NCBI GenBank assembly: GCA_045591465.1
Contig: JAZNSZ010000018.1
Coordinates: 5,730 to 69,729, forward strand
DNA: 64,000 nt
Direction: 5' to 3'
Origin: Acutalibacteraceae bacterium
GTDB taxonomy: Bacteria; Bacillota; Clostridia; Oscillospirales; Acutalibacteraceae
The notes beneath the pieces are model-generated. The model had not been told where the DNA came from and searched no databases. It worked only from the letters and a program-made list of their open reading frames with translations. A program made the translations under genes and the position numbers. Below, piece after piece: positions 8,333-50,223 of this stretch (positions within the stretch are counted from its first letter, which is position 1; each line of letters starts with the position of its first letter).

Positions 8333-8410
8333 AATTCTTTAATTGCATAAAATAAAGCGGCTCCATAACCTTTATAGGAATGAAGCCGCTTTGTGTAAGA
8401 CTTAGTTATA

Positions 8411-8488
8411 AATACCGAAAAATCGAACCATTTGGCCGAAAGAAAGGGATTATATTTTGTTTACGAAGTTATATAAATGTGTTATGAT
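8411..8488 (+). promoter_or_regulatory. hppA promoter region with a conserved upstream module
   Basis: TTTACG (8460-8465), 17-nt spacer, TATGAT (8483-8488) with an extended -10 TG. The upstream block 8411-8465 resembles 15978-16037. Confidence 0.45.
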
Positions 8489-8539
8489 GTAAGTTACAAA
8501 ATAAATCACAAAAATGTAGAAAGGTATAAGGTTTGTTTT

Positions 8540-10651: not shown

Positions 10652-10699
10652 GCATCCACTGTTTTAAAAGACTCTGGTTTTAATAACGGAGATGATATT

Positions 10700-11416
10700 G
10701 TGAGTTTTGCTAAAAGCAATATTTTAAAGAATGAACTCATTTCGAAAAAATCTCTTCGAATAAAATTATTGGGAGATTCTATAACTCATGGTTTTGGCGG
10801 AACAGGTTATTCGCCGACGGATGAGCATATTGTTGATGAGTTTTATCGTAATAACAAGGGCTATTGCTGGGCTAATTCTTTCAGGGACTATATGAAAGAT
10901 AAATTCAATTGCACCGTTATTAACAACGGTTGTTCGGGCACTACGATTGAATTTATTATCGATAATTTTGATATATTAGTTGACGATGAAGATGATTTTA
11001 TAATCTGCACCATAGGAACAAATAACCGTCATTTTTATTTCAGTGCCGGTGAAAAACCCGAACGCGAAGCTTTTGGCACCAATATTTATAACAACATTAT
11101 TAAACTCTACGATAAATTCAAATCTGCAAACAAGCAGGTAGTGTTTATTGCAAATATCCCCGCAGCTGCGGATAGAGAACTTGACAGTGATGAATTTTGG
11201 CGAATATTACATATGGATGATATCAACAATATTTACAAAAAAGCATCCGAAAACTGTGGTTTGCCGCTTATAAGCCTCTATGATCTGTTTTCGCAATATT
11301 GTCAAACGAACAACATAATCGTGGACTCGCTTTTATCTGATGGTTTGCATCCGAACGATGACGGATACGATGTTATGTTTAAGTTGATAACAGAAGCGTT
11401 GGAACTAGAACAGTAA
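10700..11416 (+). CDS. SGNH/GDSL-family hydrolase (esterase), paralog 1
   Basis: Block I LGDSITHG, block II NNGCSG, block III GTNN, block V DGLHPN. GTG start with a GGAG RBS. Confidence 0.8.
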   Translation: MSFAKSNILKNELISKKSLRIKLLGDSITHGFGGTGYSPTDEHIVDEFYRNNKGYCWANSFRDYMKDKFNCTVINNGCSGTTIEFIIDNFDILVDDEDDFIICTIGTNNRHFYFSAGEKPEREAFGTNIYNNIIKLYDKFKSANKQVVFIANIPAAADRELDSDEFWRILHMDDINNIYKKASENCGLPLISLYDLFSQYCQTNNIIVDSLLSDGLHPNDDGYDVMFKLITEALELEQ

Positions 11417-11460
11417 GCCTTAATTATGTACTGTTATAAAATTATAGGAGATAAATAGGT

Positions 11461-13638
11461 ATGGATATAAAGAAGTGGAGCATAGAAGAAACTAGTTTTC
11501 TTAAGGAAAACATAGAAATAAACGGAAGCCGTTTTTTAATAGGAAACGGTTATATGGGTTACCGCGGAACATTAGAAGAATTTGGTAAAGAGCAGTTGGT
11601 ATCGCTTAATATGGCGGGATTGTTCGACAAAAACGGCGATAATTGGAGAGAGTCGGTTAACGCTCCCAACCCCTTTTATATAAACGTGTTGGCAAATGGC
11701 ACTGAACTTAGTGTGCTTAGTTGTGATGTTGTTTCGCATTCTCAGGTTTTGGATATTAGTTGCGGACTTCACACAAGAAAAACAGTTTTCAATGTGGACG
11801 GCGCAAATGTAACTGTCGAAGCAGAGCGCTTTTTGAGTCTCGACAATGAACATATTGCCGCAATTAAATACAAAATTTCTTCCGATAAAGATGCAAAAAT
11901 TTCTGTTATCACAAAGCCTGATACAGATGTTTGGAATATCAGTGGTGAGCATTTTAAAGTACTTAACGAGACCACTAATCAAGGTATTACAACACTTGAT
12001 ATTGAGACTCTTGAAACCAAAACACCTATGCGGGTTTTAGAGTATGTAAAGTGCAAAGAGAATTTAATTGCATTCGATATTACTGCAAATAGTGAAGTTG
12101 TTTTTGAAAAACTTACAGGTGTTTATTGGGGCGATTTGTGCGCCGATGCTACAAGTGACTTTAAAAACGCTATTTCTAATGATTATGATACTTTGCTTTC
12201 TAAGCAAAAGGAATGCTGGGCAAAGTTCTGGGATACATCCGATGTTGTAATTGAGGGTGATGAGGAAGCGCAGTTTGCTTTGCGTTACAGTTTGTATCAC
12301 CTTAATTCGATTGTTCCGCGCAACACCGATAAATGCGGTATTCCTGCGCGTGGACTTTCGGGTCAGGTATATAAGGGAGCGGCTTTTTGGGACACCGAAA
12401 TGTTTATGATGCCGTTCTTCTCCTTTACCGATAAAAAACTTTGCGAAAACCTTGTAAAATATCGTGTTAACACCCTTGATGGCGCTAAAAGAAAGGCGAA
12501 AGAATTCGGTTTTGAAGGCGCATTTTATGCTTGGGAATGTCAAGAAACAGGTGACGATGCTTGTACACTTTTCAATGTTACCGATATTATTACAAATCGT
12601 CCTTTGAGAACGCATTTTAAGGATGGACAAATACATATAAGTGCCGATATGGTTTACGGATTATGGAATTATTGTATAGTAAATGACGACTATTCCATTT
12701 TGGGTGAGGGCGGCATGCAGATGATATATGAGTGCCTGTATTTTTATTATAGCCACTCTGTGTTTAAGCCGCTTAAAAACCGCTTTGAGCTTCATAGCGT
12801 TGTAGGCCCTGACGAATATCACGAATTAGTTAATAACAATGCATTTACAAACAAAGTGGTACAATGCACTGCTAAAATTTTCGTTAAAGCGCTTGAGTAT
12901 ATGAAGCAAAATATGAACGGTAAATACCAAGAATTTATCGAGAATAATGATGTTTCTTGGGTTGCAGATTTTGTAGGAAAACTTTATGTTCCGCAACCTA
13001 ATGAAAATGGCGTTATAGAGCAGTTTGACGGCTATTTTGGTCTTGAAGATATAAGTCTTCCAAAGCTTAAAGAGCGCATTATTATGCCTAACGAATATTT
13101 GGGCGGTGGTGCCGGTCTTGCGACTACCACAAGAATAATTAAACAAGCAGACGTTATTATGATGCTCAATGTTTTCAGAAACGAATATTCCAAGGAAATC
13201 AAGAAAGCTAACTGGGAGTTTTATGAACCATATACCGAACACGGTTCTTCTTTGAGCGCGTGTGCATACGGTATAGTTGCGGCTCAAATCGGTATGGCTG
13301 ATTGGGCATATAAATACTTCATGAAAACTGCAACAGTAGACCTTACGGGCGACTCGAAACAGTATGTCGGAAACCTTTATATAGGCGGAACACATCCTGC
13401 GGCAAATGGCGGCAGTTGGAATACGGCAATATTCGGGTTTGGCGGCGTAAGTTATACTGATGATGCGCTTGATATTTCACCAAGCCTTCCTGAAAAATGG
13501 AACAAACTTTCCTTTAAGCTTAATTGGAAAGGCGTATGGCTAACAGTGAATGTTACAAAGGATGGAGTAACAGTACAAGCCGAAGGTGATACGAGCGGAA
13601 TAAATGTCACAGTAAACAAAGAAAAATATGTATTTTGA
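11461..13638 (+). CDS. GH65-family glycoside phosphorylase (maltose/kojibiose/nigerose/trehalose phosphorylase type)
   Basis: GNGYMGYRG, LSGQVYKGAAFWDTEMFMMPFF and EQFDGY motifs. 725 aa, immediately followed by pgmB. Confidence 0.85.
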   Translation: MDIKKWSIEETSFLKENIEINGSRFLIGNGYMGYRGTLEEFGKEQLVSLNMAGLFDKNGDNWRESVNAPNPFYINVLANGTELSVLSCDVVSHSQVLDISCGLHTRKTVFNVDGANVTVEAERFLSLDNEHIAAIKYKISSDKDAKISVITKPDTDVWNISGEHFKVLNETTNQGITTLDIETLETKTPMRVLEYVKCKENLIAFDITANSEVVFEKLTGVYWGDLCADATSDFKNAISNDYDTLLSKQKECWAKFWDTSDVVIEGDEEAQFALRYSLYHLNSIVPRNTDKCGIPARGLSGQVYKGAAFWDTEMFMMPFFSFTDKKLCENLVKYRVNTLDGAKRKAKEFGFEGAFYAWECQETGDDACTLFNVTDIITNRPLRTHFKDGQIHISADMVYGLWNYCIVNDDYSILGEGGMQMIYECLYFYYSHSVFKPLKNRFELHSVVGPDEYHELVNNNAFTNKVVQCTAKIFVKALEYMKQNMNGKYQEFIENNDVSWVADFVGKLYVPQPNENGVIEQFDGYFGLEDISLPKLKERIIMPNEYLGGGAGLATTTRIIKQADVIMMLNVFRNEYSKEIKKANWEFYEPYTEHGSSLSACAYGIVAAQIGMADWAYKYFMKTATVDLTGDSKQYVGNLYIGGTHPAANGGSWNTAIFGFGGVSYTDDALDISPSLPEKWNKLSFKLNWKGVWLTVNVTKDGVTVQAEGDTSGINVTVNKEKYVF

Positions 13639-13646
13639 GGTGTAAT

Positions 13647-14267
13647 ATGAAGGGCGCAATATTTGATTTGGACGGCGTAATTGTAGATACTGCCAAATAT
13701 CATTATTTAGCTTGGAAAGAATTGGCTGAGCGACTTGGGTTTTTCTTTTCGGAAGAAGATAATGAACGCCTTAAGGGCGTGAGCCGTATGCGTTCACTTG
13801 AAATTTTGCTTGAAGTGGGCAATATTACTGCTACTGAAGAAGAAAAACTTCAAATGGCGGACGAGAAAAACAAAAGATATGTTGATATGCTTGCTACTTT
13901 AGATAAAAGCGAACTTTTAGAAGGTGCGGAAGAATATCTTAAAAAACTCAAAAGCGAAGGCGTTTTAATATCTTTAGGCTCGGCAAGTAAAAATGCACCG
14001 ATAATATTGGAAAAACTTGGGATTTACGACTTGTTTGATGCTATTGTCGACGGCAATAATGTATCAAAGGCAAAGCCTGACCCCGAAGTATTTTTAAAGG
14101 GCGCCGAGATGTTAAATCTTGACCCTAAAGACTGCTGCGTTTTTGAAGATTCACAAGCGGGTATTGAGGCCGCTCGTGCGGCAGGTTGCTCGGTTATTGC
14201 TATCGATAAATCTCACATTTTAACCGATGCTGACAAATATGTAACCTGTCTGGGTGATTTGTTATAA
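13647..14267 (+). CDS. pgmB: Beta-phosphoglucomutase (HAD superfamily)
   Basis: FDLDGVIVDT nucleophile motif, LKGVSR, SASKNA, KAKPDPEVF and FEDSQAGIEAARAAG motifs. GAGGTG RBS before the ATG at 13647. Confidence 0.85.
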   Translation: MKGAIFDLDGVIVDTAKYHYLAWKELAERLGFFFSEEDNERLKGVSRMRSLEILLEVGNITATEEEKLQMADEKNKRYVDMLATLDKSELLEGAEEYLKKLKSEGVLISLGSASKNAPIILEKLGIYDLFDAIVDGNNVSKAKPDPEVFLKGAEMLNLDPKDCCVFEDSQAGIEAARAAGCSVIAIDKSHILTDADKYVTCLGDLL

Positions 14268-14291
14268 TTATTTTTTTAAGAAGGTATCAAT

Positions 14292-15002
14292 ATGAAATAT
14301 ACTAAAACTGATATTTTGAAAAACGAACTAAATTCCAAGAAACCTTTAAGAATAAAATTGCTTGGTGACTCTATTACTCACGGTTTCGGCGGCACTGATT
14401 ATTCTCCCAACGAGGAACATATTGCGGATAGATTCCACCGCAATAACAAAGGTCATTGCTGGGCCAATTCTTTTAGGGATTATATGAAGGAAAAATATGA
14501 CTGCACCGTTATTAATAATGGTTGTTCCGGCACTAAAGTCGAGTTTATTATTAAGCATTTTGATACCTTGGTAGAAGATTCTGATGATTTTATAATATGC
14601 ACCATCGGAACCAATAATCGTCGACAGTTGTTTACAACCGGCGAAAAGTGCACACGCGAAGCTTTTGGTAAGAGATTTTATAACAATCTCATTAAGGTAT
14701 ATAATATGTGCAAAGAAGCAAATAAAAAGGTTTTATTTGTTGCGAATATACCCGCGGCCGCTTGTAATGAGCAGGATAAAGAAACTTTTTGGCGTATTTT
14801 GTACATGAATGATATAAACGAAATTCATAAAAGGGCTTCCGAAAAATGCGGTTTCCCGCTTATAAGCCTTTACGACCTTTTCACAAAGTATTGCAGTGAC
14901 AATAATGTGACTGTTGAATCTCTTTTGTGCGACGAGGTTCATCCAAATGATGCAGGATATGACGTTATGTTCAACCTGATGGTAGAGGCATTAGAAGTAT
15001 AA
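14292..15002 (+). CDS. SGNH/GDSL-family hydrolase, paralog 2
   Basis: About 65-70 percent aa identity by eye to 10700-11416. All four SGNH blocks are retained (block V is DEVHPN). Confidence 0.8.
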   Translation: MKYTKTDILKNELNSKKPLRIKLLGDSITHGFGGTDYSPNEEHIADRFHRNNKGHCWANSFRDYMKEKYDCTVINNGCSGTKVEFIIKHFDTLVEDSDDFIICTIGTNNRRQLFTTGEKCTREAFGKRFYNNLIKVYNMCKEANKKVLFVANIPAAACNEQDKETFWRILYMNDINEIHKRASEKCGFPLISLYDLFTKYCSDNNVTVESLLCDEVHPNDAGYDVMFNLMVEALEV

Positions 15003-15010
15003 TATAAAAC

Positions 15011-15050
15011 AAAAACACACCTAAAACGTTTGATTTTAGGTGTGTTTTTT
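15011..15050. terminator. Bidirectional terminator between the SGNH paralog and the convergent AraC gene
   Basis: CACACCTAAAA-cgtttga-TTTTAGGTGTG, flanked by A and T runs. Confidence 0.65.
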
Positions 15051-15053
15051 ATT

Positions 15054-15908
15054 TTATTGTTGGTGTTTTTTACGGAATTCGGCAGGAAGTGTATTTGTGT
15101 TCTTTTTAAAAAACAATTCAAACCCGCGCGAAGAAGAAAAACCGCATTTGTATGAGATTTCAGCAATACTCAGTTCTGAAATTTCCAAGTATTTTTTAGC
15201 AGCATTTAGTCGTGTTTCTGCGAGATTTTGGGAAAAAGATTTATTGGTGTATTTAAGCAACAACCTGTTGACATGGGTTTTGCTGTAATTGAGCGTTTGC
15301 GCCAAGTCGTCAATAGTTACATGCCTTGAAAAATTGTCGTAAAAAAAGCGGTCTATCAATACGCGTTGAGTCAAGGTGTCGCTTCTTTCTACGGTGAAAA
15401 AATTGTCCAAAGACTCATGCGGCAAAATTTGTTCGGCTATATAACTTATGATAGTTCCAAAACAGTTTTTAATTCTAAAACTATTGAGTTTGTGATTTTT
15501 GTCGTTAAAGTGAAAATGTATTGACAAAATATTTCTGTATATTTCGTTTTTTGTTTTTTTATCAGGCTTGTAAAGTTGATATAGTTTTTTGTTGTTTAAA
15601 TCGAGTATGTCTCTGAATAAAAAGCGGAATGAAAAACGTTTTAAATTTTCGCTGTACGAAACGATTCTATGTTCAGTATTTGGGAATATAACTAAAATAT
15701 CATGTTCCTTTAATTCGACTTCATCCATACCGCATTGAAGAACAAGGGAGCCACTTTCGATAAAATAAACCTCGAACATTGTATGAAAATGGGAGATACA
15801 TGAATCTTTTTTAATATTTTTTAACATGTTTAAGTAATCTATTCTAGCATCAATAGTAGTGCTGGCTAACTTGAATGTAAACTCAAGATGATCAATCTTC
15901 ATAAGCAT
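15054..15908 (-). CDS. AraC-family transcriptional regulator (cupin + HTH), divergent from the GRE operon
   Basis: C-terminal AraC HTH (IAEISYKCGFSSSRGFELFFKKNTNTLPAEFR) and an N-terminal cupin-like region. Confidence 0.85.
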   Translation of the reverse strand: MLMKIDHLEFTFKLASTTIDARIDYLNMLKNIKKDSCISHFHTMFEVYFIESGSLVLQCGMDEVELKEHDILVIFPNTEHRIVSYSENLKRFSFRFLFRDILDLNNKKLYQLYKPDKKTKNEIYRNILSIHFHFNDKNHKLNSFRIKNCFGTIISYIAEQILPHESLDNFFTVERSDTLTQRVLIDRFFYDNFSRHVTIDDLAQTLNYSKTHVNRLLLKYTNKSFSQNLAETRLNAAKKYLEISELSIAEISYKCGFSSSRGFELFFKKNTNTLPAEFRKKHQQ

Positions 15909-15977
15909 GATTTATACCCCAATTCCCATATATTGTGTATGCTGTAAAACCATTCTACCATACAAAAAAAATAAAAT

Positions 15978-16067
15978 CAATACCAACCGAAAAAACGAAC
16001 CAAATGTTCGTAAAAAGGAGTATATAGTTTGTTTACAAAAAACGTGTATTTGTGGTAGAATTATAAT
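15978..16067 (+). promoter_or_regulatory. Regulatory region of the GRE operon with the palindrome ACGAAC-N5-GTTCGT
   Basis: Palindrome at 15995-16011. TTTACA at 16032-16037 and TATAAT at 16062-16067 are 24 nt apart, so this is not a standalone consensus promoter. The block resembles 8411-8465. Confidence 0.4.
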
Positions 16068-16093
16068 GCAAAAATAGCCTGGGGGGCTTATAC

Positions 16094-17089
16094 ATGTTAG
16101 AAAAATATTTAGCAGACTCGAATATCGTTGGCGCTACCGTGATAGAAACTCTTGATGGCGGATTGATGGCTTCGTATGGCACCGATTCCGGAAAACACTT
16201 TCTTAAAAGTTATGACAAGTTTAGAACTATTGCTGAAAGTTGGATAGTTCCGGTTGGAGGGTCGACCGCATGTGCAAATCTTTTACGTTTAAACGACGGA
16301 AGATTGATGATGGTTGTGCGTGAGGTTAGCGAAAATGAAAAAATAGCCGCAATAGGTGGCGCTAACTTTTACGCGGTGTATTCTGAAGATGACGGTAAGA
16401 CATTCGGTGAGTATCAAAGAATCAACAAAGAAGAAAATTGTTATTACATCATGAACAACCGAATAATAAGAACCCAGACTGGCCGAGTGCTAATTCCTGT
16501 ATGTTACGTTCCCGATAAACACACTGCAAAGGAATACCAAGAGAAAGCAGGTTGTGCAGGTTGTTTTTATAGCGACGACGATTGTAAAACCTGGAATGTC
16601 GGCGAGTGGTTAGAAAATATAAACGTTGACCAATTAGCAGAACCTATGATAGCGCAGGGCAAGGATGGCACCATCCACATGTATGCGCGTACTGGATATG
16701 GCTACTTGTATCGTTCAACTTCGACTGATGACGGCATCACGTGGGAACCTGCTCAAGCTTCAATGCTTCGTTCTCCCTGTGCTCCGTTCTGTATAAATTA
16801 CGATAAATACTCAAATAAATTTTTCGCAATATGGGATAACACTTTCCCCGCTGAAGCTCATGGCGGTCCCAGAACACCGATTTGCTTAGCAGTAAGTGAT
16901 GATTGTGTTAACTGGAAAGTACTTTTCGAACTTGATAACGATCCGTTTTATCAATACGGTTATCCGATGATGTATTTTGATGAGAAAGAAATACTTATAA
17001 CATACTACGAAAACCCCTCAAGAAGATATAACGTAGAAAACCATAAATTGAAAATGAAATTGTTCTCAAGAGAAGAAATTATTCTATGA
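16094..17089 (+). CDS. Cytoplasmic BNR/Asp-box beta-propeller protein (sialidase/GH33-like fold)
   Basis: Four Asp-boxes: SEDDGKTF, SDDDCKTW, STDDGITW, SDDCVNW. C-terminal YGYP...YYE resembles the sialidase Tyr region. No signal peptide and no FRIP motif seen. Confidence 0.7.
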   Translation: MLEKYLADSNIVGATVIETLDGGLMASYGTDSGKHFLKSYDKFRTIAESWIVPVGGSTACANLLRLNDGRLMMVVREVSENEKIAAIGGANFYAVYSEDDGKTFGEYQRINKEENCYYIMNNRIIRTQTGRVLIPVCYVPDKHTAKEYQEKAGCAGCFYSDDDCKTWNVGEWLENINVDQLAEPMIAQGKDGTIHMYARTGYGYLYRSTSTDDGITWEPAQASMLRSPCAPFCINYDKYSNKFFAIWDNTFPAEAHGGPRTPICLAVSDDCVNWKVLFELDNDPFYQYGYPMMYFDEKEILITYYENPSRRYNVENHKLKMKLFSREEIIL

Positions 17090-17868
17090 GTGTTACGGCG
17101 TGTGTAGCTGATATTCAACGCGCTTCTATCCATGACGGACCGGGCATAAGGACGACTGTGTTTTTTAAAGGCTGTCCGCTAAACTGTGCTTGGTGTCATA
17201 ATCCGGAATGCATAAGCAGAGAACCGCAAATACTTTTTTATCCCGAAAAATGTATCGGTTGCGGAATGTGTGATAAAGGATGCTATGCAGGTGCAAGGAT
17301 AGTATGTGGCAAAGAAATGACTGCCGAAGAAATTTTTAAGGAAATTTTGTTAGATAGGGCATATTACTCTACGGACGGCGGTGTTACTTTTTCCGGTGGC
17401 GAACCTATGATACACCCGGAAGTAATAAAAGAGTTGATTTGTCTTTGCAAAAAAGAGAAAATACATACTGCTATTGAAACTTCGCTTATTATTTTCGATG
17501 AGGAAATATTGGGGAATGTAGACTATGTTATGGCTGACTTTAAAATTTGGGATAGCCAAAAGCATAAAAGGTTTACGGGAGTTTCAAATGAAACTATAAA
17601 AGAAAATTTCAAAAAACTTGATTCTTTGAATGTTCCGTTCATCGTTAGAACGCCGATAATTCCCGGCATCAATGATACGGCAGAAGAAATAGAAAATATT
17701 AGAAATTTTATCAAACAATTCAAAAACATTAAAAATTATGAGCTTTTGCCATATCATCCGTTGGGTGTAGAAAAGCAAAAAGCATTGGGAATGGAAAAAA
17801 CCGAATTTTCTATTCCTGACAGAGTTCAAATGGAGGCGTTGCAAAGGTATGCTAACCTACAAGGATAG
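17086..17868 (+). CDS. Glycyl-radical enzyme activating protein (radical SAM)
   Basis: CPLNCAWC (CX3CX2C) near the N-terminus after DGPGIR. One ferredoxin-like CIGCGMCDKGC motif, then GGEP. The start overlaps the upstream stop (ATGA). Confidence 0.9.
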   Translation: MSVTACVADIQRASIHDGPGIRTTVFFKGCPLNCAWCHNPECISREPQILFYPEKCIGCGMCDKGCYAGARIVCGKEMTAEEIFKEILLDRAYYSTDGGVTFSGGEPMIHPEVIKELICLCKKEKIHTAIETSLIIFDEEILGNVDYVMADFKIWDSQKHKRFTGVSNETIKENFKKLDSLNVPFIVRTPIIPGINDTAEEIENIRNFIKQFKNIKNYELLPYHPLGVEKQKALGMEKTEFSIPDRVQMEALQRYANLQG

Positions 17869-20071
17869 GCTTAACGCTATTAGAGAAACCAAGATACAAC
17901 ACACTTTGCAAAAGCGTGAGCAAAACGGCTATACCGACCTTGATGATTTCGGCACGGTACCGCTACCTGAAAATTACAAAGTAGAGCCTTGGTATAACAG
18001 TGAAAACGGTAGTTTTTACGGTATCGATGGAATGAGCGAGAATTTTTGCAGAGTAATGGATGCGCATCCTGCTTATGTAGACCCAATGGAAATGCTTTGC
18101 GGAAGATGGCGCGACATGCTGGTTAATTATCGTGGCGACTTGCATTACATGCCAAAATGGCGTAAGGCGCAAATGGTAAATGACGATTTGTCACAGGTTA
18201 CTAATCAGTGGAGCAAACGTTGGGACGAAATAAGATTCCCGTACGATGATTTAAAACCGTTGCAAAAAAAATACAACATAACATCGGGTATTGACGCAGA
18301 CGCTCACCTTGCTTGTGATTACTCGATAGGTTTAAACTTAGGGTTTGGCGGTTTTCTTGATAAAATAGAAAAATACCGCAAAATCAATCCCCAAAAAGCT
18401 GATTTTTATGACGCTGAAGAAAAGTGCGTAAAGGCTATTGTTCGTTTTATAGACCGCAACATTGCCGAAATAGAAAAGCTTTTATTAACAGAGAATAGAC
18501 CTGAGATTATCGAAAGTTTAAACGAAATGTTACAGGTAAATAAAAATATACGACTAAATAAACCTGAAACTTTTTATGAAGCTTGTCAATGGGTTGCTTA
18601 TTTCAACTGTGCGGCGCGTATTTATACACGCGACGGTGCAGGTTTCCAACTTGATACATTGCTTTATCCCTATTATTTAAATGATAAGCAAAACGGAATA
18701 CTTGATGACGAAAAGGCTAAGTTCTTAATTGCGAATCTTTTAGTAATAGACCCGCATTATTATCAGGTATCGGGTGTAGATGTAAATGATAACGACATTA
18801 CGAATGAACTTTCATTTCTTATTTTAGATGCTTGTGATGCGATAAACATATCGGCGAATATAACAGTAAGGTATCACGAAAAATGCAATAAAGAATTTTT
18901 CGATAAAGCTGTTTATTATTTGCTAAAGAATAAGAATGGTTGGCCGCGTTTCTGCAGTGATAAAAATTTATCAGCAGGCTATATGAGAAATATCGGTGTA
19001 ACCAAAGAGATAGCACGAAAAAGAATTGCGGTTGGTTGCAACTGGATGTGCGTCCCCGGTATAGAGTTCCCTATGAACGATACCGTTAAGATAAATATAG
19101 CGAAGGTGTTCGAGTGGGCACTTATAGATATGAAAAGCGAAGAGAATAAATCGACAGAAAGACTGTTCACGCTTTTCGCATCGCACCTTGAAAAAGCAGT
19201 TGATATAACTGCTAAGGGAATAAATTTCCATATAGACCACCAAGCAGAAGTAACTCCTGAACTTATAATGAATCTTATGATGGAGGATACGATAGAAAAA
19301 GGTCTTGACATTTCGCAATGTGCGAAACTTTATACCGTAGGTATAGATGGTGCCGGTCTTGCCGTCGTGGCGGATTCGTTTGGCGCACTTGAACAAAGAG
19401 TTGAAGATGAGAAAATACTCACCTGGGATGAGATTTATGAAAATCTTGAAAACAACTTTGAAGATGTTTCAGGTGAACGCGTAAGACTTATTTTAAACTC
19501 AAGCCCCAAATACTGCGGCGGAGATACGGCGGCTGATAAATGGGCAAAACGATTAACTGAATGTTGGGTTGAAAAAGTCAAAGGACAGGAAATGCCCGAA
19601 AACAGACAGTTAATACCGGGCTGGTTCAGTTGGTCCAGAAGCATTGAGTACGGCTCCGTGGTAGGCGCTACGCCAAATGGCAGAAAAAGCGGCGAACCTA
19701 TTTCGCACGGCGCTAATCCTAATCCTCATTTCAGAACCGACGGCGCTGTTACAGCGCAGTCTAACGGAATAGCCGCTGTGCAATGCGGTTGGGGTAATAC
19801 GGCTCCGTTACAAATTGAATTTGACCCACAAATTTCCGATGATGAAAAAGGTGTATCTATTATAGGTAACCTTGTTAAGAGTCATTTTGAGCAAGGCGGA
19901 ACACTCATTAATATAAATGTTCTAGATGCTCAAAAATTAAAAGAAGCACATGAGAATCCAGATTTACATCCGGACCTGGTTGTTAGAGTTACAGGCTTTA
20001 CAGCTTATTTTGCTTCTTTGTCACCGCAATTCCGTGAATTAGTGGTACAAAGATTTTTGGAGGGGATGTAA
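17849..20071 (+). CDS. Glycyl radical enzyme, PFL2/dehydratase-like fold, unknown substrate
   Basis: C-terminal glycyl radical motif VVRVTGFTAYF (Gly716, codon 19994-19996). GATPNGRKSGEPISHGANP. Cys loop AVGCNWMCVPG (Cys397, codon 19037-19039). Confidence 0.9.
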   Translation: MLTYKDRLNAIRETKIQHTLQKREQNGYTDLDDFGTVPLPENYKVEPWYNSENGSFYGIDGMSENFCRVMDAHPAYVDPMEMLCGRWRDMLVNYRGDLHYMPKWRKAQMVNDDLSQVTNQWSKRWDEIRFPYDDLKPLQKKYNITSGIDADAHLACDYSIGLNLGFGGFLDKIEKYRKINPQKADFYDAEEKCVKAIVRFIDRNIAEIEKLLLTENRPEIIESLNEMLQVNKNIRLNKPETFYEACQWVAYFNCAARIYTRDGAGFQLDTLLYPYYLNDKQNGILDDEKAKFLIANLLVIDPHYYQVSGVDVNDNDITNELSFLILDACDAINISANITVRYHEKCNKEFFDKAVYYLLKNKNGWPRFCSDKNLSAGYMRNIGVTKEIARKRIAVGCNWMCVPGIEFPMNDTVKINIAKVFEWALIDMKSEENKSTERLFTLFASHLEKAVDITAKGINFHIDHQAEVTPELIMNLMMEDTIEKGLDISQCAKLYTVGIDGAGLAVVADSFGALEQRVEDEKILTWDEIYENLENNFEDVSGERVRLILNSSPKYCGGDTAADKWAKRLTECWVEKVKGQEMPENRQLIPGWFSWSRSIEYGSVVGATPNGRKSGEPISHGANPNPHFRTDGAVTAQSNGIAAVQCGWGNTAPLQIEFDPQISDDEKGVSIIGNLVKSHFEQGGTLININVLDAQKLKEAHENPDLHPDLVVRVTGFTAYFASLSPQFRELVVQRFLEGM

Positions 20072-21243
20072 TGAATAATTGTGAAACTGTTTTAAAAGGC
20101 TCCTATGACGTTATAGTTGTAGGCGGCGGTATAGCCGGTGTTGCGGCTTCTGTCTCAGCTGCGAGACAAGGCATGTCGGTTTTACTGATTGAAAAAGGCG
20201 TCAACCTTGGCGGTCTTGCAACATCGGGATTGATTTCTTGGTACGAACCGCTTTGTGATGGCTTAGGAAATCAAACAACATACGGAATCGCCGAAGAGCT
20301 CATAAAGTTATGTTGCAAATACAACTTTGAGAACCTACCGGTAAAATGGGGCGGCGACGGGCATAACAAGTCGAACAACGAACGTTATGCTACATATTTT
20401 TCACCAACTGTTTTCACCTTGGCGCTTGACGAATATGTTTTGGCGAACGGTGTTAAACTTTGTTTCGATGGTTTGGCAACATATCCTGTTATGGACGGTA
20501 ATATTTGTACCGGCGTTATAGTTGAGACCGTAAGCGGCAGAGAACAATTTAATGCAAAATTTGTAATCGATGCTACGGGTACTGCTTCTATAATGGATCG
20601 CGCAGGAGTACCTACCGTATGCGGCGAAAACTATATGACCTATGTGGTTCATTGGTTTGATGTCGAAGGTGCCGAAAAATTAGTTGATGATAAGAATATA
20701 TGTAAATTCAGGCGTTGGATGAATGCCGGCAGTGATATGATGGGCAAAGGTCATCCTGAAAATATGGGTATGTTATCGGGAGTTTCTTCCGAAGATGTTA
20801 CAAATTATATGATTGCGGGAAAAGCAAGACTGTTAAATAAACTTCGTGATAAGGATAAAAACAGTTTTGATGTAATGACCTTACCAAATATGCCACAGTT
20901 CAGAAAAATAAGACGAATTGTAGGCAAGACCGACTTCAACGCAATAGACGGCGAGAAGTATGAAGATTCCATAGGAAATTGCAGTGACTTTAGACCGAAC
21001 GGTAAAGGTAAACATTACCAAATACCCGGCACTTCACTTTTCAATGAAAACTTTGGCAATTTAATTGCCGCGGGAAGAATCATATCGGCGCCGGATGTAG
21101 ACGGTTGGGAAGTAGCACGAGTTATTCCAAACTGTGCGCTTACCGGTGAAGCGGCTGGTAAAATGGCTGCTTTGTGTATTAAAGAAAATAAACAACTAAA
21201 TCAACTTGATAAAGATGACTTTAGTAGAATAAAAATCAATTAG
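20071..21243 (+). CDS. FAD-dependent oxidoreductase
   Basis: N-terminal Rossmann motif DVIVVGGGIAGVAASVSAARQGMSVLLIEK. The start overlaps the GRE stop (TAATG). Confidence 0.8.
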   Translation: MNNCETVLKGSYDVIVVGGGIAGVAASVSAARQGMSVLLIEKGVNLGGLATSGLISWYEPLCDGLGNQTTYGIAEELIKLCCKYNFENLPVKWGGDGHNKSNNERYATYFSPTVFTLALDEYVLANGVKLCFDGLATYPVMDGNICTGVIVETVSGREQFNAKFVIDATGTASIMDRAGVPTVCGENYMTYVVHWFDVEGAEKLVDDKNICKFRRWMNAGSDMMGKGHPENMGMLSGVSSEDVTNYMIAGKARLLNKLRDKDKNSFDVMTLPNMPQFRKIRRIVGKTDFNAIDGEKYEDSIGNCSDFRPNGKGKHYQIPGTSLFNENFGNLIAAGRIISAPDVDGWEVARVIPNCALTGEAAGKMAALCIKENKQLNQLDKDDFSRIKIN

Positions 21244-21254
21244 GAGAGAAAAAT

Positions 21255-22178
21255 ATGGCTTTAGAAAATTTTAAGTATGTAATACCGGCTTTTAACACAC
21301 CATTTGATAAGGACGGCAACTATTCTGAAGAACGCGCTAAGCAAATGTTAGAATGGCAATTAAGCAAAGGCGTAGGCGGTTTTTATTTGTTAGGTAGTAA
21401 CGGTTTCGGCCCTGCTATTGAGAAAAAGGAACGCATGGAAGCGTTGGAGTCAATTTGCTCAATCGTTAATAACCGCGTTGAAACAGTAGCTCACGTTGCC
21501 GCAGTTTCAACCAATGATACTATTGCGATGGCTAAACATGCACAGTCAGTAGGATGCGCTGCTATATCTGCTGTACCTTCTTATTACTACAAGTTAAGAC
21601 CCGAAGAAATGTATAGATACTATGCAGAAGTAGCAGAAGCAGTTGATATTCCTTTGATTGTATATGCAAAAACTGCTGACTATGCTCCTTCAGTAGAAAT
21701 GTTCCAAAAGTTAGCTGAAATCCCGAATGTTAAGGGCGTAAAATTCACCGGTCCTAACCACTACATGATGGGTAGAATTAAAGAACATTTAGGAAAAGAC
21801 TTTAAGGTATATTCAGGTTATGACGAAATGTGCTTATCAGGTATTATGTCCGGCGCAGATGCAGTTATCGGTGGTACATATAACCTTTATCCTGATTTGA
21901 TTATTCGTTCAATCGATAAATTGTTAGCAGGCGATGTAGCCGGTGCTCAAAAGGATTACTTAGCAAGTAATGCAATAATCGAAGTATTGTTCAAATACGG
22001 CAACCTTACTTCAGTAATGCGTGCTGCTATGTCATTCATGGGAATTGATGCAGGTTATAATCCGTCACCATACACTGAAATGGATCCCGCTAAGTTACCA
22101 CAACTCAAGGCTGAGTTAAAAGAACTCAAAGCAAAACTTGATATAGAAGATATCGATTTGTTAAAGGCTGTTGAGTAA
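21255..22178 (+). CDS. DapA/NanA-family class I (pyruvate-dependent) aldolase, divergent
   Basis: PSYYYK motif and the Schiff-base Lys context VKGVKFTG (NanA-like). The usual GTTGE/GSTGE motif is replaced by GSNGFG. Confidence 0.75.
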   Translation: MALENFKYVIPAFNTPFDKDGNYSEERAKQMLEWQLSKGVGGFYLLGSNGFGPAIEKKERMEALESICSIVNNRVETVAHVAAVSTNDTIAMAKHAQSVGCAAISAVPSYYYKLRPEEMYRYYAEVAEAVDIPLIVYAKTADYAPSVEMFQKLAEIPNVKGVKFTGPNHYMMGRIKEHLGKDFKVYSGYDEMCLSGIMSGADAVIGGTYNLYPDLIIRSIDKLLAGDVAGAQKDYLASNAIIEVLFKYGNLTSVMRAAMSFMGIDAGYNPSPYTEMDPAKLPQLKAELKELKAKLDIEDIDLLKAVE

Positions 22179-22326
22179 AATAGGCAAATAACCGATAATA
22201 CATATCGGGGCATAAATCAGGAAATATTTACTTGTTGATATATTTCGAATTTATGTGTTACCTTATTTATATGTATTTAGTATATATCTATTTATATATA
22301 TATAGAATAGGAGGTAGAGCGGAATC

Positions 22327-24873
22327 GTGAATAAAAATAAAATCGGCATTTGGCAAATGGATATGGGCCAGAATGTATCGATTGGTGATTTTAACAACGT
22401 TACCGACGTTGAGAAATACGGTGTAACACCGGGTCAAAAAGGTGACCATCCACAAGAGATTATAAATCCCGATGCTCGTCCGATAGTTTACCGAGAATTC
22501 AATCCGGAAGAATATCAATATTACTTCTTAGGTAAAGATTATTTTTACGGTATTTTAAAAGATGGTGCCGAAGTTATTTCTGCAGTAGACGATAAAGGCC
22601 GTTTGCTTGATGTTTATGACTGTGCCGGTAAGTTTAAATTAGCTGTCAGAGGTAACGATATAAAATTTTTAATGACCGATATCGCTTCTTTTGAAGAAGT
22701 TACGGTTGATGGTTATAAAGGTGTTAAAATTTGGTACAATTGTGAAACAACTTGCCGTTTCGTTGATGAAGCAGCTGCTACATACTTGTTCAAGGAAACA
22801 GGAATTTCGGTTAAACTACACGCTGCATGGCAGGGCTTAGAAGATGAAGTTCTTAAAGGCGGATGCTCGGTTGTTAGAAAAGCGTTAAACGATACACCGA
22901 TAACAAAGAAGCGAATTTCGTACAACTGGAATTATCCGGAAGATAACGACTTTACTCATTTGGTTGGCGAATCGGTTGCTATTTCGGGTGAGTATGACGG
23001 TATTGCGGTTTATACATTCTGCCGCGACACTACACCGGATAAGAGATTTAATCTTAAGGTTTGCGATTGCGAACGTTTTCAGTTAGATGTCGGAACGAAC
23101 ACAAAGGATGTCGACCATACATATTATATAGATATCGTCTTCGTGAAGGCATCCGAAAAAGAAAGTTATGAAGCGCTCTTCAAGGGCCGTCATATGAACT
23201 TTGCGGCAGGTATTGCTGCAGTAGAAGATAATGAATCTACTACATTCTTTATGGGCAAAGATGTTTTACTTAACATCAATGTTACCAATATTTCAAATTC
23301 TGATATAGAGTTTGGTGTAAGATACAATGTAATTAACCATTATAATGAAGTTGTATCAAGCGGGACATTCTATCACAACAAATTGGCAGTAGGAGAACAG
23401 GCAAACCGTAATCTTGATTTAAAACTTGATAACTACGGTATGCATTATCTCAACTTGTATGTTACCGATGGTGTTAGTGAGTACCGCGAGTGTTACCACT
23501 TTGCAATGCTTGAAGAGTTTGACTTTAAGTATAGAACAAAGAGCCAGTTTGGTATCTGCGCTCCCCATACCGACAACGCGGGTGAGAGCGAAGTTACCGC
23601 AAAGCTACTCAAAAAGATGGGTATTAGCGCAACAAGACTTGGTGTAAGTTTAGACCATTATTTGTCTGACTGTCTTGAAGAAAACGGAATTGATAGATTA
23701 GTTGGTATATACGGAAACAAGGGTGTACCTGCTGATGAATATGCCAAAGCGGTAAAAGACCGCGCTGATGAGTGGATGGATGAAATCGAGTGTTTCCTAA
23801 TTGGTAATGAAATGGATAAGTTTACTAAGGGCAACTACGATAAGAGTAAGCGCCTTTTGGAAACTAACTATATTCCAAACACAATTAACCCGGTTTACGA
23901 TTACCTTACTACTAAATATCCTGATAAGGATATAGTTTGGGAAAGTAACTGCCACGGATCGCTTGAATGGTTAGAAGCCTTCTACGAAACGGGACTTTGG
24001 GACAAATCGAAAATCATTGATGTCCATTCATATAGTAGTCCATCGGGACCTGACAAGTGTTTCTCCAATCAATGGGCGAGTATGCAAGCAAGTCTATTCT
24101 CTAACGAATATGCTGCGGTACGCTGGAAACGTATTACAAGACGTTACGGCGATAAGCGACTTATGATAGGCGAGACAGGTTATCCCACCCCTTACGACGA
24201 CAGAAGGGAAATTGACATCCGTACACAAGCGGACTTCAATACAAGAATAGCGTTATTCTTCCTTGAAGTAAAAGCGGAACTTATCAATTTCTATTGCTTG
24301 TTTGACCGTATAAGTTGGGCAGAGGGTACAGGCACCGGTAAAAATGTTCAAATGTTCTTTGGCGCGTGCTATAACCACGACTATTACGGCATATATATGC
24401 CGAAGCCTTGGGCGGCAGCATACGCTAACCTTACAAGACGACTCGACGGTGTTGATACTTGTAAATTCTTCGATGATTACGAAGAAGACGAGTGGGGAAC
24501 ACTTCGTGCCTTTAAGGTTACTAAAAAGGACGGTACCGAGTTAGCGGTTCTTTGGTCGAATATTTATATGCAACCTAATACAACCGCTGAAGGCCGTATG
24601 AACAATGTCGAGCGTATACCTTTCCCTGCTTGGGAAAACCACTGGTTAGAAACCGAAACTCGTACCTTTGCTGCTGTCGGTGATACGGTAGAAGTTATCG
24701 ATATAATGGGTAACAAAAAGGTATATACCGCAAAAGACGGCAAGGTTGATATTGAAGTTAGCGGTTCGCCAATATTCGTTTATGGCATTAAGGGCAATTC
24801 TGAAATTGATCCCGAAAAAGCGAATAATCGTGACAGTGATATTCCGGTTGTAGGCACTGCCGGTATCTGTTAG
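22327..24873 (+). CDS. Putative cytoplasmic glycoside hydrolase, clan GH-A-like TIM barrel in the C-terminal half; paralog of 45360-48113
   Basis: LIGNEMD (acid/base NE) and MIGETGYP (nucleophile E) motifs, conserved in the paralog as ENGNES and ITEVGYA. No signal peptide. GTG start 12 nt after AGGAGG. Confidence 0.55.
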   Translation: MNKNKIGIWQMDMGQNVSIGDFNNVTDVEKYGVTPGQKGDHPQEIINPDARPIVYREFNPEEYQYYFLGKDYFYGILKDGAEVISAVDDKGRLLDVYDCAGKFKLAVRGNDIKFLMTDIASFEEVTVDGYKGVKIWYNCETTCRFVDEAAATYLFKETGISVKLHAAWQGLEDEVLKGGCSVVRKALNDTPITKKRISYNWNYPEDNDFTHLVGESVAISGEYDGIAVYTFCRDTTPDKRFNLKVCDCERFQLDVGTNTKDVDHTYYIDIVFVKASEKESYEALFKGRHMNFAAGIAAVEDNESTTFFMGKDVLLNINVTNISNSDIEFGVRYNVINHYNEVVSSGTFYHNKLAVGEQANRNLDLKLDNYGMHYLNLYVTDGVSEYRECYHFAMLEEFDFKYRTKSQFGICAPHTDNAGESEVTAKLLKKMGISATRLGVSLDHYLSDCLEENGIDRLVGIYGNKGVPADEYAKAVKDRADEWMDEIECFLIGNEMDKFTKGNYDKSKRLLETNYIPNTINPVYDYLTTKYPDKDIVWESNCHGSLEWLEAFYETGLWDKSKIIDVHSYSSPSGPDKCFSNQWASMQASLFSNEYAAVRWKRITRRYGDKRLMIGETGYPTPYDDRREIDIRTQADFNTRIALFFLEVKAELINFYCLFDRISWAEGTGTGKNVQMFFGACYNHDYYGIYMPKPWAAAYANLTRRLDGVDTCKFFDDYEEDEWGTLRAFKVTKKDGTELAVLWSNIYMQPNTTAEGRMNNVERIPFPAWENHWLETETRTFAAVGDTVEVIDIMGNKKVYTAKDGKVDIEVSGSPIFVYGIKGNSEIDPEKANNRDSDIPVVGTAGIC

Positions 24874-24938
24874 TGCTTTATGTGGTGATAATACCACTTT
24901 AATATATATAAATAAATTATTTAAAGGAGTGTCTAATT

Positions 24939-26957: not shown

Positions 26958-27096
26958 TGTGAATTTATTGTAAAATAAGCAAATTAAAGAGTATAGAAAC
27001 GCAGGTTATAATTTCTTTTTATCCCGTTAATCCTGCGTTTATGACAAAGTAAATTTTTCCTGGTTTCTTGACTGGGGATATCATTGTGGAGATGTT

Positions 27097-32721: not shown

Positions 32722-32745
32722 AAAGGTTTTAGGAGGAACAGAATA

Positions 32746-37009: not shown

Positions 37010-37019
37010 AAAGGAGTGA

Positions 37020-37922: not shown

Positions 37923-37926
37923 CGGT

Positions 37927-40274: not shown

Positions 40275-40289
40275 AAATAGGTGCTTTTT

Positions 40290-40916: not shown

Positions 40917-40941
40917 TGTAATGACTTTATGAAGGAGCCGT

Positions 40942-44368: not shown

Positions 44369-44380
44369 GGTGAATGAGTT

Positions 44381-48995: not shown

Positions 48996-49041
48996 AAAAG
49001 TTGTCGATAATGGTAAAATATGAAAATCGAGGGAGAAGATT

Positions 49042-50208: not shown

Positions 50209-50223
50209 GGGAGTTGTGTTAAT

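Follow-up and report, generated by a model that had tools for sequence, protein, structure and literature searches.

An orphan glycyl radical enzyme with tryptophan at the CXE glutamate position, carried with its activase as a probable accessory cassette in a sialidase-fold and aldolase operon of an Acutalibacteraceae bacterium

The window analysed here is a 64,000-nucleotide stretch of a contig from an Acutalibacteraceae bacterium. A check of its open reading frames showed five coupled genes on the forward strand at 16094-22178, encoding a sialidase-fold propeller, a glycyl radical enzyme (GRE) activase, the GRE, a PF12831 flavoprotein and a NanA-like aldolase. The genes and their flanking elements are:

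16094-17089, forward strand: propeller gene, 331 aa
17086-17868, forward strand: activase gene, 260 aa
17849-20071, forward strand: GRE gene, 740 aa
20071-21243, forward strand: flavoprotein gene, 390 aa
21255-22178, forward strand: aldolase gene, 307 aa
15054-15908, reverse strand: AraC-family regulator with cupin/AraC_binding and HTH_18 domains (Pfam), divergent from the five-gene operon
15011-15049, both strands: bidirectional terminator-like hairpin between the upstream GDSL esterase gene and the AraC gene, with a 16-17 bp stem and T runs on both strands
16032-16061, forward strand: candidate sigma-70-like promoter, TTTACA-18-TAGAAT with an extended TG, 33 nt upstream of the propeller gene

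The first-pass annotation had described the five genes as coupled through three overlaps, and all three junctions were exact on the sequence (ATGA at 17086-17089, 20 shared nucleotides at 17849-17868 and TAATG at 20069-20073). The GRE, flavoprotein and aldolase genes are each preceded by a GGAGG-like ribosome-binding site. The divergent AraC-type gene was also found as described, and its orthologues in L019, L020, L057, L148 and L150 likewise diverge from this operon. The candidate promoter is no more than a match to the consensus, and the region as a whole has as many such sites as expected from shuffling. The Rfam scan detected no riboswitch that would name a ligand; its sole match was a tRNA at 58686-58759. 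GDSL and SASA esterases are encoded close to the operon. Same-strand genes run on to approximately 51.5 kb, two ABC importer sets among them, in agreement with the glycan import locus of about 30 kb proposed earlier. This context is not obligatory, however, because L057, which has the same five-gene order with a propeller only 55% identical, sits amid housekeeping genes. Microcompartment shell genes had been reported as absent, and tblastn searches of limited sensitivity with PduA and EutN-like queries gave no match, either in the window or across 150 related loci (2.05 Mb of loci). No shell Pfam domains were present among the called neighbours of the GRE loci, and a GRM-type BMC-H/BMC-P association was not seen there.

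The GRE combines a PFL-like domain (PF02901, 293 bits) with a Gly_radical domain (PF01228, 51 bits), the barrel and C-terminal glycyl radical domain of the GRE superfamily. Its Gly loop reads R-V-T-G716-F-T-A-Y-F, and the fingerprint RVxG[FWY]x6-8[FL]x4Qx2[IV]x2R fits RVTGF-TAYFAS-L-SPQF-R-EL-V-VQ-R except for one Q to R change. The Cys loop reads A-V-G-C397-N-W399-M-C-V-P-G. In PDB sequence alignments, C397 coincides with the catalytic Cys in five GREs of solved structure, W399 takes the place of the CXE Glu, and H153 and D411 align with His164 and Asp447 of glycerol dehydratase. The adjacent Cys-Cys of the formate lyases (PFL/TdcE) is absent; the second Cys of the loop (GCNWMC) is at +4. The CXE motif characterises GRE 1,2-eliminases, isomerases and HPAD-type decarboxylases, to our knowledge every characterised example of the last, and it is replaced here by C397-N-W399. 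According to a 2026 review, all eliminases and isomerases retain CXE, and CC is found only in PFL and TdcE (PMC13450708).

The best NCBIfam score of the GRE was to TIGR01774 (267 bits vs a cut-off of 678), with 70-210 bits for the other GRE models (cut-offs of 994-1150). No cut-off was reached among the named equivalogs, which included HypD, CutC, HpfG, HpsG, the indoleacetate and 4-HPA decarboxylases, PFL and the PflD-type PRK09983. An exact copy of the window GRE was not on record among public assemblies. The earlier annotation had regarded the GRE and activase as unambiguous and their partner set as fitting no characterised GRE pathway. RVTGFTAYF and CPLNCAWC are indeed present, and Pfam and TIGR02494 agree. 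As every equivalog cut-off was missed and the CXE Glu is an invariant Trp, the orphan case is stronger than that annotation stated. Judged by its sequence, the window GRE is an orphan, outside the characterised GRE families.

The activase scored 278 bits against TIGR02494 (cut-off 174) and fell below the cut-offs of all specific activase equivalogs. Its radical SAM CX3CX2C motif is formed by C30/C34/C37 (CPLNCAWC, residues 30-37); motif and subfamily score together are those of a GRE-activating enzyme, and the GRE thus has both a catalytic Cys, C397, and an adjoining cognate activase that passes TIGR02494. The 260-aa protein had been said to carry one CX2CX2CX3C motif, and the cysteine map showed a single ferredoxin-like one (C56-C66), plus C42 and C74. 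One auxiliary motif is present in 55 of 84 clade activases and two in 23.

The B12-independent glycerol dehydratase/PFL2 family (1r8w, TIGR01774) shares the fold, the His and Asp equivalents and a TIGR02494-type activase with the window pair. It differs in having Glu435 where the window GRE has Trp, and neither a 1,3-propanediol dehydrogenase nor a BMC context is seen at the window locus. Among solved structures, Archaeoglobus fulgidus PFL2 (2f3o, 6.5e-57) was the best match by sequence; its function is still debated, and it differs in its GCVE loop, its archaeal origin and its lack of a sugar-locus context.

Of 120 close homologues, 119 carry Trp in place of the CXE Glu. The residue is found at Cys +2 in 137/137 relatives or loci with 44-87% identity, is invariant in a 20-sequence clade alignment, and extends to 50%-cluster representatives down to approximately 25% identity. 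H153 is kept in at least 90% of the clade sequences and D411 is invariant. The clade has the Cys loop signature G-C-[N/H/S/G]-W and the Gly loop signature R-V-T-G-F-[T/S]. The second Cys at +4 is present in the close subfamily and is Ser or Ala in relatives of 46-56% identity. Homologues are publicly annotated as 'formate acetyltransferase', and gut metagenomes of humans and herbivores contain the clade in abundance. Literature searches that paired the glycyl radical with sialic acid, aldolases, anhydroglucitol, SusD, PULs and SSNs turned up no description of it. The GRE is therefore assigned, from these conserved positions, to a large uncharacterised clade in which Trp replaces the CXE glutamate (CxW clade).

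The first-pass annotation had named an Asp-box propeller, an FAD oxidoreductase and a class I aldolase as the partners, and the domain matches agree with this. The propeller matched BNR_2 (Pfam, 8e-24) and contains four S-x-D-x-G-x-T-W-like Asp-boxes. Its AF2 model (pLDDT 92.7) is six-bladed, which together with the Asp-boxes corresponds to the GH33 fold, and the top 50 Foldseek matches were almost all GH33 sialidases or sialidase fusions (TM ~0.7, 11-17% identity). E183 and R199 align to E539 and R555 of NanI; R131, E183, R199, R260 and Y290 are invariant in 38 homologues, and the spacing of R260 and Y290 presumably resembles that in sialidases. The RIP-motif Arg is not conserved, the position reading T-A-C/N, and no acid/base Asp of the GH33 catalytic set was identified in the propeller. 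The protein is likely to be a cytoplasmic glycosidase for a carboxylated (ulosonic-type) sugar.

The flavoprotein, FAD_oxidored PF12831 (Pfam, 1e-52), is translationally coupled to the GRE. A PDB sequence search matched nucleotide-binding motifs only, and Foldseek with the AF2 model (pLDDT 87) returned only generic two-domain flavoproteins at TM <0.5, including fumarate reductase, geranylgeranyl reductase and sarcosine oxidase; for this reason no function could be assigned. A literature search on PF12831 found no description of such a flavoprotein. Its gene follows the GRE in L055, L057, L062, L016 and L039, and is also present in GH clusters without a GRE.

The aldolase matched DHDPS/NanA (Pfam, 197 bits, 4e-58), and its best PDB match was a putative N-acetylneuraminate lyase (6rab, 3e-37). 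Scores against the NanA models PRK04147 (198 bits, cut-off 281) and TIGR00683 (160 bits, cut-off 382) were below equivalog level. Compared with E. coli NanA (3lch), the catalytic residues are kept (Lys in VKFT, Tyr in IVYA), as is GYDE; the carboxylate motif reads GSNGF instead of GSTGE. These features place the protein as a NanA/KDG-aldolase-like class I (Schiff-base) pyruvate aldolase.

The operon has a sialidase-fold protein, an oxidoreductase, a NanA-family lyase and an ABC importer in common with the sialic-acid clusters of Ruminococcus gnavus and E. coli (sialidase, NanOx/YjhC, NanA lyase). It differs in that the propeller is cytoplasmic, 11-17% identical to GH33 and without the RIP-motif Arg, the oxidoreductase is a PF12831 flavoprotein, the aldolase is below the NanA cut-offs, and NanK, NanE and NanT are missing. 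No GRE was found in a known nan cluster in the literature.

Three sister-strain contigs (L148, L150 and L151) run collinear to the window, with approximately 80-88% nucleotide identity, and encode the propeller, flavoprotein and aldolase, without an activase or GRE. In blastn, L150 1-2300 corresponds to window 14789-17090 and L150 2306-4334 to window 20047-22072; L148 1-4681 corresponds to window 12387-17080 and L148 4735-10480 to window 20049-25843. The missing segment is:

17091-20046, forward strand: segment absent from L150 and L151, and similarly from L148, comprising the activase and the GRE minus its last ~25 nt

The spacer retained in the GRE-less contigs still codes for RFLEG*, a remnant of the GRE C-terminus. 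The stop-proximal codons of this remnant double as the ribosome-binding site of the flavoprotein gene, and its codons match the C-termini of GREs from unrelated contexts. The retained GRE 3' end indicates that the activase-GRE pair was deleted in the sister strains. The reverse event, an insertion, was rejected on the same C-terminal codons. Because the closest relatives keep the module with the pair deleted, we regard the GRE as an accessory cassette and not as an integral step of the module.

Among 136 GRE loci, an activase was present in 116 (ORF clusters 45 and 12 combined, cluster 12 being the antisense of the activase in high-GC loci), a Gfo/Idh/MocA (GFO) gene in 67, a xylose-isomerase-like TIM barrel in at least 28 and a PMI-like cupin in 13. 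The earlier view of the partner set as a mark of the GRE did not hold, as the flavoprotein was present in 12 of these loci, the aldolase in five and the propeller in four, vs 67 with GFO. The dominant operon, GFOc-TIM-GFOa-GFOb-activase-GRE, has no aldolase and no glycosidase. The refuting condition named in the first-pass annotation, that homologues never co-occur with the BNR, FAD or aldolase genes, fails, since the same operon recurs in L057 and, minus the flavoprotein, in L019/L020. In L055 the GRE and flavoprotein are followed by a BNR_2 fusion protein, and in L058-L060 a propeller-aldolase pair lies behind an ABC importer without a GRE.

Elsewhere, clade GREs accompany a hexokinase, cupin PGI, PMI-like protein and hexulose-phosphate 3-epimerase (L075, L076), lie in SusCD/RhaT PULs (L121, L122, L144) or occur with TRAP transporters (L134, L140, L143). 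Distant members adjoin TRAP (acid) transporters, KdgF-sized cupins and Hyi/OtnI/IolO-like isomerases (keto acids). The GFO genes near clade GREs weakly match LevoglcsnDh and IolG. The partners of the clade are almost always enzymes for free sugars (Gfo, TIM, cupins, hexokinase/ROK kinase, transporters). In the GRE tree, GREs of different gene contexts interleave and those of propeller/aldolase contexts are scattered; 263 of 740 GRE residues are invariant, and a single conservative position (S/T598) separates the contexts. Subclades or residues specific to propeller/aldolase or Gfo/TIM contexts, sought as a sign of different substrates, were not found.

The explanation that we favour, at somewhat better than even probability, treats the activase-GRE pair as a dispensable cassette from a new, sugar-associated CxW clade; the pair would lie inside an ulosonic-acid-type module that is sufficient by itself and would carry out radical sugar chemistry. 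The operon under the divergent AraC regulator would be a composite. Its first module (hydrolase, flavoprotein and aldolase), complete alone in the sister strains, would most likely free a carboxylated keto-deoxy sugar from an imported glycoside and convert it to pyruvate and an aldose. The second, the activase and GRE, would be translationally spliced between the hydrolase and the flavoprotein. The activase would place the radical on G716, and a thiyl radical at C397 would then take an H atom from a hexose-like sugar or keto-sugar that may be held against W399. H153 and D411, on the glycerol dehydratase alignment only, may help C-O cleavage or rearrangement without a glutamate base. The carbonyl product could be tidied by the flavoprotein here, and by Gfo, TIM and cupin enzymes elsewhere, to give a sugar for the aldolase or glycolysis. 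The cassette would thus act as an accessory branch that broadens substrate range, not as a core step.

Several observations weigh against this explanation. Gene neighbourhoods bear on function only indirectly, and a cassette so frequently reshuffled might instead serve some general metabolite, for example pyruvate or a small aldehyde, and not a sugar. The TRAP transporters, Hyi/OtnI/IolO-like TIM barrels, sialidase-fold protein and aldolase of some contexts are signs of acid sugars rather than neutral hexoses, so that no single substrate common to all contexts is evident. The ketyl-radical elimination of the nearest relatives is also hard to square with the lack of the Glu base.

It is unlikely that the GRE is instead an integral step of a dedicated keto-deoxy or nonulosonic acid pathway, in which the propeller frees the sugar, the GRE and flavoprotein modify it and the aldolase cleaves it. 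Such a pathway would suit the tight translational coupling in the order propeller-activase-GRE-flavoprotein-aldolase and the recurrence of this order in L057 and L019/L020, together with the L055 arrangement, the acid-sugar partners of distant clade members and the NanA GYDE sugar-binding motif of the aldolase. However, a propeller or aldolase is present in only 4-5/136 GRE loci, the GREs of these contexts form no clade and share no distinguishing residues, the dominant operon lacks both functions, and the nearest relatives keep propeller, flavoprotein and aldolase after GRE deletion. The keto-deoxy or nonulosonic substrate proposed in the first-pass annotation is a possible one but is not favoured as the direct GRE substrate.

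An isomerase of the PflD/YbiW kind, which would cut an inert C-O ether (anhydro bridge or O-methyl) and pass the product through Gfo, TIM, cupin and kinase enzymes to hexose phosphates ('anhydroglycolysis'), is a quite improbable alternative. PflD and YbiW (ring opening of 1,5-anhydromannitol-6-P and 1,5-anhydroglucitol-6-P; 8yjo, 8id7) are PFL-like, as is the window GRE, and are among its best PDB matches, PflD being the second-best solved structure by sequence (2.6e-51). They too are sugar-derivative GREs outside microcompartments, with downstream sugar enzymes completing the pathway. Ether cleavage is chemistry that truly requires a radical. Gfo-family enzymes act on anhydro-sugars (1,5-anhydrofructose reductase, NanOx, levoglucosan dehydrogenase), consistent with the GFO matches noted above, and the L075/L076 enzymes and the PMI-like cupins of 13 loci would lead to hexose phosphates. 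Yet PflD, YbiW and HplG all retain CXE, with the Glu bonded to substrate and, in PflD/YbiW, deprotonating the C2-OH, whereas the window GRE has Trp. PflD identity is at the general GRE level only, and the loci showed no enzyme that would produce an anhydro-sugar. PflD/YbiW work with a PTS and an FSA-type aldolase, neither of which is encoded close by, while the CxW clade has Gfo, TIM, cupin, flavoprotein and NanA-like partners.

A 2-oxoacid formate-lyase or ordinary small-diol dehydratase that disposes of pyruvate or aldehyde would explain a cassette portable across many sugar operons, the public annotation of homologues, the +4 Cys and pyruvate as the aldolase product, but is very improbable given that the GRE, although of the same superfamily as pyruvate formate-lyase, has no Cys-Cys (the second Cys being Ser/Ala in the 46-56% relatives), scores 70 bits against TIGR01255 (cut-off 994), lacks CXE, and has no shell, aldehyde dehydrogenase or phosphotransacylase genes close by.

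Beyond the favoured explanation, we tentatively propose for the CxW clade a new class of GRE reaction directly on free sugars, with a radical ether/C-O lyase, deoxygenase or epimerase that would use Trp stacking in place of the glutamate, carried as a plug-in cassette by gut Clostridia and Bacteroidota for sugar derivatives otherwise inert under anoxia. Candidate substrates or reactions, neither supported nor excluded, are Kdo/DHA from RG-II, 4-O-methyl-glucuronate, pinitol, 1,5-anhydrofructose and non-phosphorylative aldonate dehydration.

GREs carry out chemically hard steps of anaerobic gut metabolism, and newly assigned clades have exposed nutrient and metabolite flows (choline to TMA, hydroxyproline, sulfonates to H2S, anhydroglucitol). 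A clade that lacks the catalytic glutamate of its nearest characterised relatives and is confined almost wholly to carbohydrate loci suggests a radical reaction on sugars that has gone unrecognised, and the window GRE probably performs sugar chemistry so far undescribed. The presence or absence of the pair in otherwise collinear operons offers a ready-made genetic contrast for finding its substrate.

The five genes of the operon were assigned to families using Pfam and NCBIfam; the operon and its upstream flank have the following layout.

15011-15049, strong bidirectional terminator that closes the upstream unit
15054-15908, AraC-family gene, divergent from the five-gene operon
16032-16061, promoter-like site, TTTACA-18-TAGAAT
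16094-17089, + strand, propeller gene (Pfam BNR_2)
17086-17868, + strand, activase gene (TIGR02494, 278 bits against a cut-off of 174)
17849-20071, + strand, glycyl radical enzyme (GRE) gene, 740 aa (PFL-like and Gly_radical)
20071-21243, + strand, flavoprotein gene (PF12831, FAD_oxidored)
21255-22178, + strand, aldolase gene (DHDPS/NanA-like)

The five ORFs, all on the + strand, and the divergent AraC gene lie exactly as placed by the first-pass annotation, and the junctions that it described were recovered when re-read on the sequence (ATGA at 17086-17089, a 20-nt overlap at 17849-17868 and TAATG at 20069-20073). Inspection also showed GGAGG-type ribosome-binding sites preceding the GRE, flavoprotein and aldolase genes. 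The aldolase gene is followed by a 148-nt AT-rich spacer (22178-22327) with a (TA)n run as well as the short palindrome CCGATAATACATATCGG; a T-tract terminator was not found in this spacer. Microcompartment shell genes, previously noted as missing, were not found when 150 related loci were screened along with the window.

In the activase, residues 30-37 form the CX3CX2C motif, and there is only one CX2CX2CX3C auxiliary motif, as had been observed. One auxiliary motif is the commoner state among the activases of GREs with Trp in place of the CXE Glu on the Cys loop (the CxW clade), where 55 of 84 have it. The radical-generating system of activase and GRE is shown to be intact. The GRE passed none of the NCBIfam cut-offs, scoring 267 bits against the 678 required for the broad PFL2/glycerol dehydratase subfamily. 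The nearest solved structures (A. fulgidus PFL2, PflD, glycerol dehydratase, HypD and HplG) reflect general-superfamily similarity only. In HMMER alignments to these five proteins, C397 takes the catalytic Cys position and W399 occupies the Glu position of G-C-[V/I]-E, the window loop being A-V-G-C-N-W-M-C-V-P-G; the positions of His164 and Asp447 in glycerol dehydratase are taken by H153 and D411. The CXE motif, its Glu bonded to substrate, is kept in each of the six C-O eliminases, in CutC, in the C-S lyases and in the three isomerases, and two cysteines on the loop are found in PFL and TdcE only (June 2026 review, PMC13450708). With GCNW, the window enzyme therefore fails a defining feature of each such class. 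Its Cys loop is shown to be incompatible with the Glu-dependent ketyl chemistry of the known eliminases and isomerases. The view that the GRE matches no characterised family was therefore upheld, both by the missed cut-offs and by the Trp substitution.

The substitution is not peculiar to this genome. Of 120 close homologues (72% identity or more), 119 carry AVGCNWMCVPG; GC[N/H]W is present in relatives of 46-56% identity, and all 137 GREs from 136 loci (44-87% identity) have GC[N/H/S/G]W together with RVTGF[T/S]. Among 50%-identity cluster representatives, GCxW...PG reaches down to approximately 25% identity, beyond which ordinary GCVE enzymes are found. An alignment of 20 clade sequences shows no variation at C397, W399, D411 and G716 and almost none at H153. 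The CxW clade was not described in the literature searched, and whole GRE clades are still without validation (PMC13450708). A different GRE was seen in L066 (1-2183) and also in L067, called as an 878-aa product with AraC HTH_18 domains fused to PFL-like and Gly_radical and with a gene for a 304-aa activase after it; either regulator and GRE are truly fused, or two genes were merged in gene calling.

Loci were sampled from species-representative genomes (54) and metagenomes (80), and the neighbouring ORFs were clustered. The genome loci belong to gut Acutalibacteraceae, Oscillospiraceae, other Clostridia and Christensenellales.

Table. Gene families within six genes of the GRE (loci out of 136).
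Activase: 116
Gfo/Idh/MocA oxidoreductase: 67
TIM barrel: at least 28
PMI-like cupin: 13
PF12831 flavoprotein: 12
Second cupin (cluster 938): 10
Small cupin (cluster 1094): 10
NanA-like aldolase: 5
Sialidase-fold propeller: 4
RhaT: 4

The propeller, flavoprotein and aldolase, proposed as the characteristic partners of the GRE, are thus a minority arrangement (4, 12 and 5 of 136 loci, respectively). At 67-87% GRE identity, the commonest operon comprises a divergent AraC gene, GFOc, TIM, GFOa, GFOb, activase and GRE, with three Gfo/Idh/MocA oxidoreductases and one xylose-isomerase-like TIM barrel, whose nearest models are hydroxypyruvate and 2-oxo-tetronate isomerases. Two loci, L075 and L076 (2519-13408; GRE 54% identical), encode DeoR, a PMI-like cupin protein, a eukaryote-type hexokinase, a cupin-type glucose-6-phosphate isomerase (PGI), a hexulose-phosphate 3-epimerase of the ribulose-phosphate 3-epimerase family, activase, GRE and an ABC importer, which points to a hexose phosphate as end-product. 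Bacteroidota PULs (L121, L122 and L144; ~8000-17000) combine a divergent AraC gene, activase, GRE and small cupin with a RhaT-like symporter, SusC, SusD and a LamG-domain protein. TRAP transporters accompany the GRE in L134, L140 and L143, a cellobiose-2-epimerase-like gene in L054, and ROK kinases are among the other contexts. Given these varied sugar enzymes and transporters, the clade is consistently tied to carbohydrate genes, and its pervasive sugar-enzyme context is shown.

The other proteins of the operon were also analysed. The propeller model (pLDDT 92.7) gave Foldseek matches that were almost all GH33 sialidases or sialidase fusions, with a TM of ~0.7 and only 11-17% identity. By family profile, E183 and R199 align with NanI E539 and R555; R131, E183, R199, R260 and Y290 are invariant, but conservation does not extend to the first Arg, which belongs to the RIP motif, and no acid/base Asp could be assigned. 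Its sequence has no signal peptide. The propeller is read as a putative cytoplasmic sialidase-like glycosidase for a carboxylated sugar and as a candidate member of GH33. The aldolase keeps the Schiff-base Lys, catalytic Tyr and NanA GYDE motif; however, it has GSNGF where NanA has GSTGE and scores under the NanA cut-offs. No informative structural relative was found for the flavoprotein, whose PF12831 family is very large.

This partner set is real and recurs, but is separable from the GRE. The identical five-gene operon with its divergent AraC gene is found amid housekeeping genes in L057, where the propeller is only 55% identical, and L019 and L020 have propeller-activase-GRE-aldolase. Part of the set is seen in L055 (closest GRE, 87%), where AraC-activase-GRE-flavoprotein leads into a gene for a 747-aa protein that joins a 3-keto-disaccharide-hydrolase domain to BNR_2. 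The GRE is absent from L058-L060, with a propeller-aldolase pair behind an ABC importer, and from L064, a glycoside-hydrolase cluster (GH94-GDSL-FAD-GH31-GH78-GH127) containing the flavoprotein. In L062, the flavoprotein directly follows a GRE in a Gfo context. On a neighbour-joining tree, the GREs of propeller/aldolase contexts are scattered among those of Gfo/TIM contexts; 263 of the 740 positions are invariant across both groups, and position 598 (Ser or Thr, a conservative change) is the only one separating them. Most probably, then, the GRE has the same function in all these contexts.

Three related-strain contigs (L148, L150 and L151) are collinear with the window and encode the divergent AraC gene, propeller, flavoprotein and aldolase without the activase and GRE. 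L148 1-4681 and 4735-10480 correspond to window 12387-17080 and 20049-25843 (~80% nucleotide identity), and L150 1-2300 and 2306-4334 to window 14789-17090 and 20047-22072 (81-88%); the L151 junction is the same as that of L150. The residual short spacer in L150, GCACAAAGGCTTTTGGAGGGGATATAG, is homologous to the final codons of the window GRE (...V-Q-R-F-L-E-G-M-stop), and R-F-L-E-G-x is the usual C-terminus of CxW GREs in unrelated contexts; the GRE-less state is hence a deletion. The GGAGGGG stretch that it kept is also the ribosome-binding site of the flavoprotein gene. It follows that propeller, flavoprotein and aldolase are a functional unit alone, and the activase-GRE cassette is shown to be portable and dispensable.

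Directly downstream of the operon stand five large + strand ORFs (848, 672, 1874, 491 and 917 aa; window 22327-34221 and 45360-48113) with no Pfam matches. The 848-aa gene has a syntenic counterpart of 845 aa in L148 and, by eye, the N-terminus of the 672-aa protein is signal-peptide-like and its C-terminus Asp-rich and dockerin-like. Window 34247-45331 is an uncharacterised glycan-import architecture, with two ABC importer sets, a 920-aa SBP-domain protein, an NHL/TPR propeller, a Yip1 membrane protein and an 838-aa DUF5696 protein of a kind also present near the GREs of L002 and L004. The same-strand run ends at 48276-51036 with ThuA-like, Gfo/Idh/MocA and IolE-like xylose-isomerase TIM genes, a 3-keto-sugar-type module whose Gfo gene is 68% identical to one adjoining the GRE in L021. 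Upstream (10700-15002), a GH65 phosphorylase-like gene and a beta-phosphoglucomutase-like HAD gene lie between the genes of two GDSL esterase paralogues of 238 and 236 aa; GDSL or SASA esterases recur beside the flavoprotein or GRE in L056, L062, L064 and L148.

We somewhat favour a general picture in which a C397 thiyl radical would abstract a hydrogen atom from a sugar-like substrate that packs on W399, C-O cleavage or rearrangement would be assisted by H153 and D411, and the carbonyl product would then be processed by the flavoprotein in the window operon and by Gfo/TIM/cupin enzymes elsewhere. Any one specific substrate would be an unlikely choice at best. The model of the first-pass annotation, with the GRE integral to the pathway and an ulosonic acid as its direct substrate, has the recurring partner set on its side and the GRE-less loci against it, and is improbable; the operon is not a dedicated sialidase-aldolase radical pathway. 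A PflD/YbiW-like ether-opening isomerase, suggested by the PflD alignment and opposed by the missing Glu, is slightly less probable again, and a generic pyruvate or diol enzyme, at odds with the same loop, is very improbable.

What is new here is a clade of GREs set apart by its catalytic motif and found in a sugar context; it is not a categorically new system. The presence or absence of the cassette in otherwise collinear strains is a useful natural knockout.
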